Numbered from the stretch's first letter, positions 33,275 to 44,441 are shown. The stretch: DNA of 64,000 bases from an uncultured Clostridium sp. (GCA_948438085.1 CAOJKP010000007.1:2605-66604), one strand, 5' to 3'. Made by a program: numbers and translations. Notes: generated from the sequence alone by a model not told the origin.

Positions 33275-33292
33275 TTATTAAGTTTTTATTTT
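33258..33292 (+). terminator. rho-independent terminator of the activase gene
   Basis: Hairpin taataact-tctaatt-agttatta followed by gtttttatttt. Confidence 0.55.
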
Positions 33293-35389
33293 ACAATTAT
33301 TATTTTATATAATTAATTAAAAATATTTCGATTCATACTATATAATTATAGAATAAATTATCACATTAATATATTATTTACATTTTAATACTTTATTACA
33401 TTTAATATTAAACCACATATAAAATCTCCATTAAAAAAATAGATTTATAAATACTCTTAATAAAAACATTATTAAATTTTTTAAAATAAATATTATTCAT
33501 AAATTTAAAAATAATTTTATAATATGTATTTTTTTTTAATTTATTAAACTACATTATAAAATTATTTTCTTGTTTTATAAATAATATTATAATATCAATT
33601 TATGTTATATTTATATATTTTTGCATTTACATCATTTTAAACTTAAAGAATATAAAAGTGATAATACATTAATTAAAATGTCTAGTATTTTTTTAGCAAA
33701 AATTATTTTATTTAATATTTTAAAAATAAAATATCATTTTCTATTTTAACAAATTAATTATTATAATTATAAACATAAATATTTATAAATTGTTTTTTAT
33801 AGTCTCATCTTTTTAATTTTTATATTTTTAAAACATAAAATAATTTTTTAGTTAAAATAAATTATACATTTATAATTTGACTTTTAATATCTATTCTATT
33901 TTTATTATTTAATCATTAGTTTAATTCCTTATGCCTGTAAGGTCCTGATTTTTTGAATATTTTCTATTTTAATTGTTAACTTTTTTTATTTTAATTATTA
34001 TTTCTTATATATATTATATATTTATTAATAATATTATATAATAAACCTACTGTACAAATTATTTCTTTATCGAAAAATATATATTTTTATAATAAATTCT
34101 TTTTTGTATTCAATTATTTATTTTTATAAACATTCATTACCTTTATGTATTTAATTTATAATTACCCGCCTCTCTTCTTAAAAATTTTATATTTTTTAAA
34201 TTCTTTATATAATCATTTTTAATAAAGTTTCTATTTTTTAAAATATCATTCATTTTTACATCTTTTATTATTAAATCATCATTAATAAAGATTTTATTAA
34301 AAATAATTATATAGCAAAATAGAAATTATATATTTTATAAAATAAAGTTCTATCTTAAAAATATATTTTAACATTATGCTTTTCTATTGATGCTTTTTAT
34401 AAACTAAAAAATGTGTATTTAACTTTTTTGTTTTATATCTTTTAGTAATATTATACTTTATTATCATTGTACTCACAGATTATCTAATTATAAATTTTAT
34501 TCAAATACAAATTGGCTCAATATTTTCTATTTTTATATATAAACTCTTTTATTAATTTATATTTATTAATTTTAAATTTATTTCCACTCAAAAATTATAC
34601 TTATCTTCACTTTAAAAATATTATGTAAATAAGTTTTATCATCTTTAAAAAATTCTGATACTATATAAATTTATATATAAAACTTATTTTCTATTTAAAT
34701 TTTTATGATATTTTTTTACAATTATAAACTTATTAGATATAATATTTATTATATTATATTTTGTTATATTAAGTAGATACAACATTTATACTTTTTTATG
34801 TTCTTAAAAATATCTTTTATATTAATTACTTTTTCATAATTAATATAAAAGATATATATTTATTTTTATTATAGTTTCTACTTAATGCATTTAAGTATTA
34901 TCTTCATCATTTATCACTATTTAAAACATTTTAAAGTCCAAACTTTTTATTCGTCCGCGAAAATTGCAAAGCAATTTTCTGTGGAATGTTAGCAAAGCTT
35001 TTTTATTGAATAAGAAAAAGGATTTTAACATTTAATATCTCCAAATAATTTGTATTAATCATTTTTTAATATATATATATTATTGACTTTTTAATTAAAT
35101 CGTCTTAAAATTGATTCTCATGCGTCTAAATTTTTCAATTTTAAAAAAATTTTATAAAATAATTTACATAATTACATTTTAGTGTGTTTTTTTATGCATT
35201 TCTATTTAATTTAATAAATTTCAACCACTTATTTAATGTTCTAATTTGTTATAGCTGTAAGGTTTTGCAGTTTTTACTTATTTTAATCAAATCTATTAAA
35301 CATTATTTATGGTTTATTTTTACTATCATATCATAATTTTAAGTAATAGTTTATATAATGTCTATTTTTTTATACATCTTTATATTATA

Positions 35390-38300
35390 CCCCAAAATAA
35401 ATTATTTTTTATTTATAATAATTTTTATTAAATTTATAATACTTTGTTATTAATATTTTAATTAAAATCTATAATTATATATATCTTTCTTGATAATATA
35501 CAATAAAATATTTATTTTTAATTTTTCTTAAATTTATTGTTATTAATTTTCTCATTAATAAATTAAATATTTATTGTTTTAATAAATATTTTTAATAAAT
35601 TTATAACTATTAAAATTTAATTCATTTCGTTTAAGATGATTTAATGTTATATACTTTTTAATTTGTTAAAATTATAGGTTATTATTTTTACATATTGTTA
35701 AATATCTTAAATAATATAACAATATAAAAAATTATTATTTAAATATTTTTTATATTGTTTATTTTAAATGAACATGAATTCAAATTAAATTTTATCAATA
35801 ATAAATCATTTGCATTTTTGATAATACTTCCTTAAGTTATTTTTATTAATTATTCATTTAAAATTTGATTTTTTATTATTGTTTATTCGCTCTAAATTAT
35901 TTGTTATTTGTTATTTTTATTTATTTTAGTTAAGCAGTTTCATTTTTATTTTAATAATAATTCCCTATTATTTATCATATTTATCTTAATTTCTTTTTTA
36001 TTATTATTTTATTTAGTAACTATTTATATATATTTTTTATTAGCTTTTATTATCTGATATTATTACTATTATCTAGACTTTTACCACTAACTTATTCTAC
36101 AATAAGATATATTTGTTTTATTTAATAAATAATACTTTTTCCGCAATTTTCACTTAGTTATTATTTTATTAATCTTTAATTGATTAATTATTTTTCGTTA
36201 AATTTATCCTAAAATATTTTATAATTTTTTATTTAAATAATATTACTTTTATATTTATATTTTATATAAATTTTACATTTTAATTTTATACATATTCTTT
36301 ATTACTTTTTTAAAACAGATTACAATATCTTAATAATATCATTAATTTTCTCTTTACTTAAAATATTTATATTATATTTCTTTATTATTTAATTTTTATT
36401 TTACATATTATTCAATAATATTTTATACTTGATTGTATTTTAATATTCAAATATTTTAATTTCTTTTATGTACTTTCTTATTTACTAAAAAAACAATTAT
36501 CGTAAAACTTATTTTTTAATTTTATATTTTTACTTTTTAATATGATTTAATTAAATTGTTTTAAAAATATACTTTTATTATATATTTATTATATAATTAC
36601 TTGTTTTAATTATTATTTTCTTATATTTTTATTGTTTCCAATTATTATTAATATTTTAATATCTACTGATAATAGTAGTTCTATTTTTATTTATACTTAC
36701 ACTGATTTTAATTATTATTTTAAATATATATTTATTATAATTAATATATATTTAAAATATTTTTTATTAATATTTATTCTTTATAAGTTACTATTTTTTT
36801 CATTACATTACTGATTCTATTTTTCATTTAAAATTAAATTTCGTTTTAATTTTAGATAATTAATTATCATTGAAGTTTCTGTCATTAATATTTTATTTTT
36901 TAATTAATAAAGCACTTATTAATTAATTACAATAATTAGGTTATTTATAAATTTAATTTACTATAATAATATACTAAAATATTTTTAGTATATTATTAAT
37001 TTAGAATATATATATATATATTCTAACATTTTATATTATTATTAATTATTATTATTGTTTAGTTTTTTATTTATTTTAAATAATTTATATTAAATTTATA
37101 ATACTTTGTTATTAATATTTTAATATAAATTTATAATTATATATATCCATCTTAATAACAAATAATAAAATATTTATTTTTAGTTTTTTTAACTTAATAT
37201 TATTAATTTCCTCACCAATAACTTAAATATTTATTGTTTTAATAAATATTTTTAATAAATTTATAACTATTAAAATTTAATTCATTTTATTTAAAATAAT
37301 TTAAGGTTATATACTTTTTCATTTGTCAAAATTATAATTTATTATTTTTACATATTTTTAAATATCTTAAATAATATAAAAATATAAATAATTATTATTT
37401 AAATATTTTTTATATTGTTTATTTTAAATAAACATGCATTCAAATTATCTTTTATCAATCATAAATCATTTATATTTCTAATAATATTTCATTAAGCTAT
37501 TTTTATGAATTACACATTTAAAATTTAATTTTTTATTTATATTTTTATTTATTCTAGTTAAACAGTTAAAATTTTATTTTAATAATAATTATCTATTATT
37601 TATCCTATTTATCTTAATTTTTTTATTATTATTTTATTTAGTAACTATTTATATTATATATTGCTTATAATAATATATAATTTATATTTTATTAGCTTTT
37701 ATTATCTGATATATTTAATATTCTCTAAGCTTTTACCACTAAATTATTCTAGAATAAAATGTATTTGTTTTATTTAATAAATAATACTTTTTCCCAAATT
37801 TTTACTTAATTTTCTTTTTATTAATCTTCAATTTATAAATTATTTTTTATTAAATTTATGCTAAAATATTTTATAATTTTTTTTAAATAATATTGTTTTT
37901 ATAATTATACTTTATATAAATTTTATATTTTAATTTTATAGATATTTTTATTACATTTTTTAGAACAGAATATAATATCTTAATAGTATCATTATTTTTT
38001 CTTTACTTAAAATATTTATATTATATTTCTTTATTATTTAATTTTTATTTTACATATTATTCAATGATATTTTATACTTGATTGTATTTTAATATACAAA
38101 TATTTTAATTTCTTTTATGTACTTTTCTATTTACTTTTAAAAAAATTATCGCAAAACTTATTTTTTAATTTTATATTTTTACTTTTTTAATATGATTTAA
38201 TTAAATTATTTTAAAAATATACTTTTATTATATACTTATTATATAATTACTTGTTTTAATTAATTACTTTCTTATATTTTTATTGTTTCCAATTATTATT

Positions 38301-43000: not shown

Positions 43001-44379
43001 ATTATTTATTTTTAATATACTTATTATAATTATTTTATATTTAGTAATATTTTATAATATAATTATTAAATATTTATCTTATAATAATAAATTAAATAAT
43101 TATTTAATTTATTATTTAATTTATTATTATATTTATTAGTACATAATTAAAGCTTATTTTTCTTTCTATTTTCAATTACTATTTTTACATAATAGATTTA
43201 ATTATTACATATGTATTATTTTAAATTATACATTAAAAATTATTAATAATATACTATATTATATTATATTATTCCATCATGTAAAATATATATTATTATT
43301 GTATACTTTCATCTTTATATTATTTTATAGAAGTGTTAGTCTTGCTGTATTTTTTCTATAATACTATAATTTCTCATCCTTTTTAATTATCCAAATAATT
43401 TTACTTAATTAAATAAATATTATTATAAAGATAACTTAAAAATACAAAAATGCATTAACTTTTGTTTAATTTATCCACTTTTTAAAACATAAAAACTCTT
43501 ATTTAATTACTCATTTATGTATTTCAGTATTTTTTATCATATTGTTTTTTCCTTTTCATTAATCACTCTTTTATTATTTTACTAATTATTATATATATAA
43601 ATTTATACTAACAAATTTTTTTATTGCCTTAAAATTGATTTTCATGCGTTCAAATTTTAAGACAATAAAAATATATTTTTAAATAAACATCTTATTTTTA
43701 TAGTTTTAATTTTGTATTTAATCTATATGCTATTTTTAAATATCTTTGTTCTTATTCTTTTTCTATTTATAATAATAAAATTTACGACATATAAATTATA
43801 TTTTTTGTCTTTTTGTACATATACTTTTTTTTGTAACATTATTATTTTTTTAATTATTCTTATTTTTTCATCAATTTTTGCTGTTATTAGCATTATACAA
43901 GTTTTTAGGCATATTTTAATTATAAAAAATATTTAGTTTTTATTTATTATAATTAGTTTTAAATATAATATTAAATAAATTTTTAAATATATTTTTATTT
44001 TGTCTATTTGATTATTTGTTTTTATTATTATTTAACATTTTAAATTTATACTTATATTTTTAACTTTTTTATACTATTATATATTATTGTTTTTTTATAA
44101 ACATATTATCATTTTACTTTATTCTTCTATTTTATATACTTACTATTCCATAATATTATTATCCTTAATTATATATACATACATTGTACATACTTTTGTT
44201 TTTTTCTATATAATGCTTTTTATATTTTCCTTATTTCCGTAGCTTTGTACACATTTAAATAAATGTTTTGTAGATTATATTTATATTTACATGTATATCC
44301 ATTATAATATTAAATTTCAATAGGCTTTTTGAATAACATTCAATTAAGAAATTATTTTATTTATTTAGGAATATATAAA

Positions 44380-44407
44380 ACACCAAACGCCTCCCAATTG
44401 GGAAGCG
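44380..44407 (-). terminator. rho-independent terminator of the GC-rich small ORF
   Basis: On the minus strand, the hairpin cgcttccc-aatt-gggaggcg is followed by TTTGGTGTTTTATATATT. Confidence 0.6.
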
Positions 44408-44441
44408 AATGATGTTTGCTTTAGTCGCATTCTAGATAATT

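Follow-up and report, generated by a model that had tools for sequence, protein, structure and literature searches.

An 11-kb AT-rich, ORF-free island beside parB and the tRNA-Ser pair in an uncultured Clostridia bacterium from the gut, probably neutral junk DNA

Andersson and Andersson are said to have provided the classic analyses of the junk spacers that decayed genes leave behind in reductive genomes. Spacers of this kind have been reviewed (PMC3899985), and in Rickettsia prowazekii about 25% of the DNA is non-coding (PMC4683814). Deletion bias is general in bacteria (PMC2817411). Because of this bias, 11 kb of useless DNA would be unexpected in a gene-dense genome. Xenogeneic silencers and nucleoid proteins (H-NS, Rok and Lsr2) recognise DNA with an AT content far above the genome average. 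AT-rich DNA has been described as a target of H-NS (PMC2094087).

The window, the whole stretch of 64,000 nt that was analysed, comes from an uncultured Clostridia bacterium of the gut and contains an AT-rich, ORF-free island of 11,167 nt (33275–44441). Relatives share the order parB, DUF4446, two tRNA-Ser genes and a convergent activase gene. In the window, the BcrAD_BadFG/DUF2229 “CoA enzyme activase” gene (28957–33274, + strand) converges with the tRNA side and is frameshifted in this species, its parts lying at 28957–29586 and 29552–33274. At the right of the island, the GC-anomalous gene reported in an earlier note on this DNA proved to be an orphan ORF of 142 aa with a foreign composition (44442–44870, − strand; GC 38%, and GC3 35% vs a gene average of 12%), which received no assignment from the Pfam, PHROG and NCBIfam families and found itself as the sole match among 5.8 billion protein clusters. 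As the intrinsic terminator of this gene (44388–44407, − strand; an 8-bp stem, 6 of its pairs G-C, ahead of a T-run) lies within the island, the functional right edge of the latter is placed at about 44387. The two tRNA-Ser genes noted on the same side are tRNA-Ser(gct) and tRNA-Ser(tga) (45119–45309, − strand), a pair that is kept downstream of parB/DUF4446 in relatives and lies 0.7 kb from the island edge, followed by the DUF4446 gene and parB (45422–46794, − strand; parB itself 45937–46794). A distance of about 10 kb had been given for both parB and oriC; it holds for oriC, around which clusters of perfect DnaA boxes flank dnaA (54528–54702 and 56225–56338) and the cumulative GC skew reaches its minimum (near 55 kb), but parB is only 1.5 kb away. 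The 10 kb upstream of parB form a tightly packed region of conserved operons with few places to expand.

The composition of the island is extreme. Its GC content is 11.2%, vs 21.5% in the other intergenic DNA (pooled over the window's 24 other segments that reach 100 nt, the longest of 784 nt) and 26.1% in coding sequence, which bears out the description of an island of roughly 10% GC far below its intergenic neighbours. The + strand consists of T (53%), A (36%), C (7.4%) and G (3.8%). Read on the − strand (A.53, T.36, G.074, C.038), these values resemble the third codon positions of the − strand genes (A.58, T.30, G.074, C.045) and, after complementation, those of the + strand genes (A.51, T.36, G.059, C.072); GC3 of the flanking genes is 12.2%, and GC at four-fold sites is 7.5–8.8%. 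The skew of the island (A>T and G>C on the − strand) likewise matches that at third codon positions and four-fold sites in the host. Since both base composition and skew match neutral sites, the island is at local mutational equilibrium, and since the skew is the same as at neutral sites in genes of both orientations, it reflects replication rather than transcription. In 12 relatives, the local AT-rich filler similarly follows the composition and skew seen at third positions in the genes next to it, and the substitution spectrum among the repeat units described below predicts an equilibrium GC of about 15%.

Coding capacity stands at chance level. The longest ORF starting with ATG, GTG or TTG has only 74 aa, and the longest stop-free run is 91 codons, as compared with 84 ± 11 for the average longest run in block shuffles. 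The ORF test was run under six stop-codon sets, the standard one and five reassignments: with TAG reassigned, one frame of 155 codons exceeded the largest shuffle value (120), with TAA reassigned the longest run was shorter than in shuffles, and under the other sets it stayed inside the shuffle range. A prophage or other element with a reassigned stop codon was also considered and rejected, as reading TGA, TAG or TAA as sense did not reveal long ORFs. A 3-nt periodicity is absent (period-3 power 1.7 in the island, 41 in the activase gene), promoter-like sites are as numerous as in shuffles, and short tandem repeats slightly exceed a first-order Markov model.

The tandem array of about 1.5-kb repeats noticed earlier is present as three units at 35396–39996, with pairwise identities of 88–91% and with indels between them in alignment. 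Unit 1 (35396–37062; 1667 nt) is 90.7% identical to unit 2 and 89.1% identical to unit 3; unit 2 (37063–38740; about 1678 nt) carries insertions of 27 nt and 81 nt relative to unit 1, and unit 3 (38741–39996; about 1256 nt) is without the first ~200 nt and the last ~120 nt of the unit. Over alignment columns 1001–1150 of A1, units 3 and 1 are 100% identical, and this mosaic of identities suggests gene conversion or partial re-duplication. The array takes up 4.6 kb of the 11.2-kb island (about 40%), and about 3 kb of it are redundant copies.

The recurrent GC-containing motifs were also recovered, as three pairs (33933/35254, 34166/42263 and 35109/43633). Motif b, CTTAAAATTGATTcTCATGCGT, lies within an imperfect inverted repeat (35100–35150) and reads ATG-AGA-ATC-AAT-TTT-AAG (MRINFK) on the − strand, with a stop soon after. 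Its second copy, b′ (43618–43670), folds into a hairpin of about 20 pairs closed by an 11-nt loop, has a fold z-score of −5.2 on the − strand, and reads MKINFK on that strand, where the ORF has 18 codons. Motif c, CCCGCCTCTCTTC (34160–34180), is the partner of c′, CCCCTTCTCTTC (42262–42285), and the order and orientation from c to b are identical in both copies, which suggests that a segment was duplicated long ago or that two paralogous − strand genes have decayed here. Collinear blastn matches are barely above the reversed-sequence control. In addition, a GC-containing hairpin, GAAAATTGC-AAA-GCAATTTTC followed by a T-run (34953–35005, + strand), occurs once with a z-score of −2.85 and may be a remnant terminator.

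Comparison with closely related strains and species revealed a locus of variable size. A segment of 224 bp (41068–41291), with short direct repeats at its borders (TTTATGTTTTTTT and TTTATATTTTTTTT), is present in the window and missing from two near-identical strains (L002 and L003); the strains thus differ by a clean microhomology indel while their flanking genes are only about 0.04% different. Between species, the distance from the parB end to the activase end is 175 bp in L044, 1.9–7.9 kb in nine others and 12.7 kb here. AT-rich, ORF-free filler of 1–7 kb follows parB/DUF4446/tRNA-Ser in ten relatives (L010, L011, L013, L017, L024, L025, L028, L054, L056 and L068), an AT-rich stretch is missing at the site in five (L044, L055, L058, L040 and L049), and similar stretches occur at unrelated positions in four (L012, L027, L029 and L058, in the last at 19.7 kb). 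The syntenic comparison that had been proposed, with absence from all relatives as one outcome, therefore came out otherwise: most relatives with enough sequence have analogous filler there. In the 10 kb upstream of parB, not one stretch of at least 800 nt at <17% GC was found in about 60 relatives of the same lineage (L008–L069). The genes after the tRNAs vary by species as well (patatin-like, asnB-like, LemA/DUF3137, glycosyltransferase-like and others). As a counterpoint to a junk interpretation, filler recurring at one origin-proximal locus could mean a selected spacer or a protein-binding platform.

The sequence of the filler is not shared between species. In blastn, islands of different species score no better against each other than reversed-sequence controls do; L017 has an independent and unrelated array of four units at the site, L011 has a two-copy repeat there, and profile HMMs built from the unit in the window and from that in L017 each match their own array alone. 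Among 61 related contigs, 43 stop within 3 kb after parB, some contigs ending in sequence of <17% GC and many at tRNA genes, so that such regions are largely missing from short-read genome bins.

Taken together, the island is real, non-coding, neutral in composition and skew, variable in size, internally duplicated, polymorphic for an indel among strains and not conserved between species. We consider it fairly probable that it is neutrally evolving junk DNA, showing no sign of constraint on sequence or composition and subject to turnover by duplication and deletion at a permissive locus where two converging genes end. This site is hypervariable, with the tRNA-Ser pair and the orphan gene read leftwards and the activase gene rightwards. 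Growth would proceed by copying DNA that is already AT-rich and equilibrated, via kilobase-scale tandem duplication and unequal exchange, and shrinkage by microhomology-mediated deletion; the island would persist and grow because such equilibrated DNA is duplicated in kilobase steps. The raw material was probably in part genes or inserted DNA, decayed past recognition, and the two weak c and b motif pairs hint that the few GC-containing remnants may come from decayed genes. As in junk spacers, there is no intact ORF or periodicity, the composition is near equilibrium, and both presence and length vary; residual homology to functional genes of relatives was not found, as the best match of 20 proteins from their syntenic intervals to the island in tblastn (E 0.57) was no better than the reversed control. 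We infer that the island lacks a function and that turnover by duplication and deletion is what maintains it.

A first alternative, which we regard as unlikely, is that most of the island came from outside with mobile elements, one or several, which inserted at tRNA-Ser and decayed fully, the 142-aa gene being the latest arrival. A degenerated integrated element came closest among the explanations offered in the earlier note, and part of it stands: two tRNA-Ser genes adjoin the island, gene content after them differs species by species, the orphan gene is homologue-free with its aberrant GC3, and two motif pairs resemble the remains of duplicated gene starts and ends. The other expected traces were not seen, as the island has no integrase or other ORF and no remnant of the genes of relatives, and no 18-mer of either tRNA recurs on the two strands of 33000–45100 even when 3 mismatches are allowed, so that an att (attL/attR) repeat is not visible. 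A BLAST search with the low-complexity filter on against 50,697 phage and 72,556 plasmid records returned no similarity. Foreign composition is confined to the 142-aa gene; that of the island, like its skew, is native and equilibrated, which would need long residence, and 4.6 kb of it belong to an internal array that is largely redundant.

Somewhat less likely still, the AT-rich domain may be functional as DNA, near parAB and the origin, with selection acting on AT-richness and length and not on sequence. Being easily melted or bound by nucleoid proteins, it could organise the origin region, hold back or titrate ParB/SMC or AT-binding proteins, or insulate converging transcription. The recurrence of 1–7 kb of AT-rich, ORF-free DNA after parB/DUF4446/tRNA-Ser in the ten relatives, its absence from the 10 kb upstream of parB, and the closeness of the island to parB (1.5 kb) and oriC (about 10 kb) all point this way. 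Since a function that depends on composition would leave no sequence conservation, the conservation test is blind to it, and since AT-richness alone could attract nucleoid proteins, a structural role keeps a small probability. On the other side, five relatives have no filler and four have AT-rich stretches elsewhere, the contrast with the upstream side involves a packed operon region with little room for expansion, and the composition already equals the neutral expectation, so that selection on it need not be invoked. The bent or structural satellite suggested earlier likewise found no support: parS has no match with fewer than 3 mismatches in the whole window, the island included, DnaA boxes in the island amount to two one-mismatch sites and no cluster, and, against Markov-resampled controls, A-tract or AA/TT phasing gave |z| ≤1.1 at periods of 10–11 bp and never >2.7 at 5–25 bp. 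The broader proposal that gene-free domains of about 10–15% GC by parAB and the tRNA-Ser pair are a selected feature of chromosome architecture in the lineage strikes us as doubtful; close to the origin, such a domain might serve as a spacer, a platform for nucleoid proteins or a buffer for DNA melting, with selection keeping its length and AT content and duplication letting its sequence turn over freely.

That the island encodes one giant non-coding RNA, or small RNAs in an array with one per tandem unit, is highly improbable. The − strand of the island is rich in A and G, as is the sense strand of the neighbouring genes, two regions with GC-containing hairpins fold better than shuffles (34930–35020, z −2.9; 43600–43680, z −5.2), and the repeat units could be gene copies. 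Nevertheless, only the tRNAs reached the gathering threshold in Rfam, with nothing inside the island even at E ≤ 5; similarity across species is not above controls, composition and strand skew agree with neutral sites whichever way the genes are oriented, promoter-like sites show no enrichment, stable hairpins are confined to DNA outside the array with just one or two occurrences, and about 10% GC gives little capacity for stable structure. Least probable of all, and contradicted by independent metagenome contigs, is a chimera or other assembly artefact. In its favour, contigs from short reads are broken all through this region, those found leave 35563–39421 and the first 340 nt (33275–33612) uncovered, and the activase/island junction (33275–33612) is backed only by synteny and the window's own assembly. 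Against it, contigs from at least 5 other samples match 39421–45312 at 98.9–99.9% and join it to the tRNA/parB side, L091 matches 33613–35563 at 99.9%, the internal gap is exactly the repeat array, as short reads would give, and relatives repeat the architecture of tRNA-Ser, AT-rich DNA and activase.

If the junk interpretation is true, the island would be an unusually large and clean neutral block for a bacterium outside the obligate endosymbionts, would offer a direct readout of mutational equilibrium (about 10% GC with a replication-strand skew), and would indicate that kilobase duplication can locally outpace deletion bias. If it is functional instead, it would represent a new kind of sequence-independent chromosomal domain beside the partition genes.

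Among described systems, the targets of H-NS, Rok and Lsr2 resemble the island in that its AT content far exceeds the genome average, but they are normally horizontally acquired genes and the island is gene-free. Like tRNA-associated genomic islands, it adjoins two tRNA-Ser genes, varies in content between species and has one neighbouring gene of foreign composition; unlike them, it has no integrase, tRNA-derived direct repeat or genes, and its composition is native and equilibrated. Eukaryote-style satellites and segmental duplications share with it the tandem kilobase units, a mosaic identity suggestive of exchange between copies, independent arrays at one site in different species, and indel polymorphism among strains, although here there are 3–4 copies only, on a bacterial chromosome, and the lack of parS leaves a centromere-like role unsupported. 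The junk spacers of the Rickettsia type are likewise ORF-free, with a GC content below that of genes toward mutational equilibrium and with presence and length that vary between related species, unconserved in sequence. The island differs from them in lacking detectable residual gene homology, in forming a single 11-kb block in a gene-dense window of gut Clostridia, in consisting to about 40% of a kilobase-scale tandem array, and in having analogous filler at one locus across a whole lineage.

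The island (window positions 33275-44441) is 11,167 nt long and has a GC content of 11.2%, its + strand being composed of T (53%), A (36%), C (7.4%) and G (3.8%). By comparison, the coding DNA of the window has a GC content of 26.1%, and the remaining intergenic segments that reach 100 nt (n = 24), the longest being 784 nt, have a pooled value of 21.5%. No ORF in the island exceeds 74 aa and its longest stop-free run, 91 codons, lies inside the range of block shuffles (mean maximum 84 ± 11), in agreement with the earlier note, which described more than 11 kb of extreme composition lacking any credible ORF. 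No coding signal was found in it with the standard stops or with TGA, TAG, TAA or TAA+TAG read as sense, and its period-3 power is 1.7, the neighbouring activase gene reaching 41. Apart from the island, the window contains only one stretch of 800 nt or more with less than 17% GC (61157-62099, 16.8%), and this overlaps two ORFs (61430-62026 and 61983-63857).

The base frequencies and strand asymmetry of the island are those of the least-selected sites of the genome, whichever direction the neighbouring genes run. On the - strand, the leading one in the island's replichore, the frequencies are A.53, T.36, G.074 and C.038, compared with A.58, T.30, G.074 and C.045 at the third codon positions of - strand genes, and A.51, T.36, G.059 and C.072 at those of + strand genes when expressed on the - strand. 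Four-fold sites have a GC content of 7.5-8.8% and a GC skew of -0.25 to -0.33, and the skew of the island is -0.32. In 12 relatives, the AT-rich ORF-free DNA lying between parB and the activase gene (hereafter filler) agrees likewise with the least-selected sites of the neighbouring genes, and the equilibrium GC predicted from the substitution spectrum among the three units of the island's tandem array is roughly 15%. Because of this match with the host genome, the extreme composition is neither foreign nor in need of a special explanation, and the higher GC of the other intergenic DNA is accounted for by its being short and packed with functional signals. As a natural read-out of mutational equilibrium, the island is of practical use. 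The most extreme composition among all loci seen occurs in the relative L013, where 966 nt after the tRNA-Ser pair (11756-12721) contain only 4.3% GC, well below the GC3 of that species (11%).

To the left, the island is flanked by a gene for a BcrAD_BadFG/DUF2229 CoA enzyme activase, and to the right by DUF4446, parB, parA, rsmG and mnmG, with dnaA further right. Perfect and one-mismatch DnaA boxes cluster on either side of dnaA (54528-54702 and 56225-56338) and the cumulative GC skew reaches its minimum near 55 kb; the origin is a typical bipartite one of the Firmicutes type, about 10 kb right of the island. The earlier note had placed both oriC and parB at about that distance, which is correct for oriC only, parB (45937-46794) being 1.5 kb away. 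The GC-anomalous gene and two tRNA-Ser genes noticed at the right border are indeed present, at 44442-44870 (-) and 45119-45309 (-), respectively. The former is a 142-aa ORF with 38% GC and a GC3 of 35%, against a genomic GC3 of 12%, and is followed by the region's only strong intrinsic terminator (44388-44407, -). It has no match in Pfam, PHROG or NCBIfam, and a search of 5.8 billion protein clusters yielded only the protein itself; it is probably a recent newcomer of foreign origin, or a piece of such a newcomer, beside the tRNA-Ser genes. In addition, the activase gene is frameshifted into two + strand parts, 28957-29586 (209 aa) and 29552-33274 (1240 aa), which overlap by 35 nt in different frames, and its counterpart in relatives is a single ORF of about 1450 aa (L055, 16024-20382; in L068 the HSPs share one frame). 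As these two gene calls recur at 100% nucleotide identity in an independent short-read contig (L088, sample SRR13356528), the split is not a sequencing error of the window, and the gene is either a pseudogene or a two-piece gene.

Internally, the island bears signs of turnover. The tandem array of about 1.5-kb repeats recognized earlier consists of three units (35396-37062, 37063-38740 and 38741-39996) with pairwise identities of 88-91% and several indels between them, units 1 and 3 sharing tracts that are 100% identical. The only ORFs kept across the three units are T-rich stop-free runs explained by nucleotide identity. Strains whose flanking genes differ by about 0.04% are distinguished in the island by a clean 224-bp indel with short direct repeats at its ends. 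Short-period tandem repeats are only marginally in excess (54 rows versus 42.5 ± 6.5 under a first-order Markov model) and are mostly a by-product of composition, and the inverted repeats are ordinary at such composition. The recurrent GC-containing motifs of the earlier note resolved into three pairs, two of which keep the same order and orientation with copies about 8.1-8.5 kb apart: a palindrome that includes ATG-A(A/G)A-ATC-AAT-TTT-AAG on the - strand, and a CCC(G/C)C(C/T)TCTCTTC element. This collinearity hints either at an older duplication or at a pair of paralogous genes that have decayed, with alignments that barely exceed the control.

A scan of the genome collection with ParB returned only uncultured Clostridia bins above 60% identity, and Lachnospiraceae and other Clostridia at lower scores. 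The related bins derive from the guts of rabbits, mice, humans, chickens and ruminants, and include Clostridium sp. CAG:273, Candidatus Merdicola and Candidatus Scatovivens, which we take to belong to the order TANB77 in GTDB. The order parB, DUF4446, tRNA-Ser(tga), tRNA-Ser(gct) and a convergent activase gene is kept in many related species, and the ends of parB and the activase gene lie 12.7 kb apart in the window, 1.9-7.9 kb apart in nine other species and 175 bp apart in L044, which is devoid of DUF4446, the tRNAs and filler. In some species the interval holds ordinary genes (patatin-like, asnB-like, LemA/DUF3137 and others). The earlier note had considered that the island might be absent from this interval in all relatives; instead, many species carry analogous ORF-free stretches of 1-7 kb with 4-16% GC at the site (including L010, L011, L013, L017, L024, L025, L028, L054, L056 and L068), and no filler is found there in L044, L055, L058, L040 and L049. 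In three relatives, a further piece of AT-rich DNA (1.1-1.5 kb, about 15-16% GC) is present upstream of the tRNAs, between DUF4446 and the tRNA-Ser pair (L010, 11177-12653; L025, 11310-12432; L028, 11309-12407).

No homology was detected between the islands of different species, blastn scores equalling those of reversed-sequence controls, and nhmmer profiles built from either the window unit or the L017 unit match only their own copies. L017, whose ParB is 77% identical and which is the nearest relative to have a sequenced island, has an independent array of four units with a period of 1.04-1.33 kb and about 80-88% identity, and L011 has a two-copy repeat. The L017 units hold a small ORF that is intact in a single unit, the other copies being truncated or dead; a 71-aa ORF from an L017 unit has as homologues only three short proteins on small contigs, which form no family. 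Each of the four units also contains one perfect DnaA box (TTATCCACA; 9767-9775, 10807-10815, 12137-12145 and 13203-13211) embedded in about 45 nt of conserved sequence. The array is no further than about 5 kb from parB; since there is one box per unit and no cluster, these boxes probably represent a single ancestral occurrence multiplied by duplication.

The best-supported interpretation is that the island consists of unconstrained DNA situated where two genes converge with their 3' ends. Insertion or expansion there breaks neither a promoter nor an operon, and the adjoining tRNA genes are places where gene content is in flux. Deletion bias would normally clear such DNA before equilibration (PMC2817411), a difficulty that vanishes if duplication of already equilibrated DNA keeps renewing the block; such renewal is favoured by the presence of arrays in two species, by mosaic identity among the units of the island's array and by the indel between strains. 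That the DNA is functionless as well as unconstrained is our inference, as is the source of its raw material. The main rival, an architectural role near the origin that does not depend on sequence, would account for the recurrence of filler at this locus but is weakened on three counts: some species do without filler, comparable stretches lie at different places in other relatives (L012, L027 and L029), and no binding motif or DNA-shape signal was found in the island.

Other candidates fared less well than unconstrained DNA. A tRNA-targeting integrative element is disfavoured, as the island has no integrase, no tRNA-derived att repeat and no foreign composition; a distant-mode search, whose sensitivity was limited by the low-complexity filter, returned no similar phage or plasmid records, and tblastn detected no remnants of the relatives' interval genes. 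Scans for a parS site or a DnaA-box cluster were negative, which argues against oriC or parS. A giant non-coding RNA or an array of such RNAs, as suggested initially, is unsupported, given the lack of any Rfam family in the island even at E <= 5 (only tRNAs appeared at gathering and permissive thresholds, as in L017) and of similarity between species' islands. Promoter-like sites number 191, versus 195 ± 16 in shuffles, and the terminators found in the same scan are only those of the 142-aa gene. The suggested bent satellite is likewise unsupported: the island displays no helical periodicity in AA/TT or A-tract spacing. A recoded prophage was dismissed because, among the stop sets tested, the sole run above shuffles was one TAG-reassigned frame of 155 codons (largest shuffle value 120).

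Finally, a chimeric mis-assembly is ruled out by independent contigs on both sides of the array. Exact look-up of the 142-aa protein retrieved contigs from several independent samples, mouse-gut metagenomes included, that run from the parB/tRNA side into the island and are 98.9-99.9% identical to 39421-45312, and a 29-mer from the left part, used to scan metagenomes, retrieved a contig 99.9% identical to 33613-35563. The gap that independent contigs leave, 35563-39421, coincides with the tandem array, a place where breaks in short-read assemblies are to be expected. Besides this gap, only the first 340 nt beside the activase gene have no independent contig; exact-protein look-ups of the activase and a Germane-domain gene gave no independent contig across this junction, probably because start codons differ, and relatives' synteny covers it indirectly. 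Among the related contigs (L008-L069), 43 of 61 stop within 3 kb downstream of parB; of the 46 that break off within 10 kb after it, 11 do so in DNA with less than 17% GC and many others on reaching the tRNA-Ser genes or shortly before. This neighbourhood is thus systematically truncated in short-read genome bins, which is of practical relevance for their completeness.

The literature that could be searched contains no account of islands of this kind from this lineage. The island is a real and unusual feature, yet most probably ordinary in mechanism: it works like the junk spacers of reductively evolving genomes (PMC3899985, PMC4683814), and its internal dynamics are similar to those of satellite DNA.
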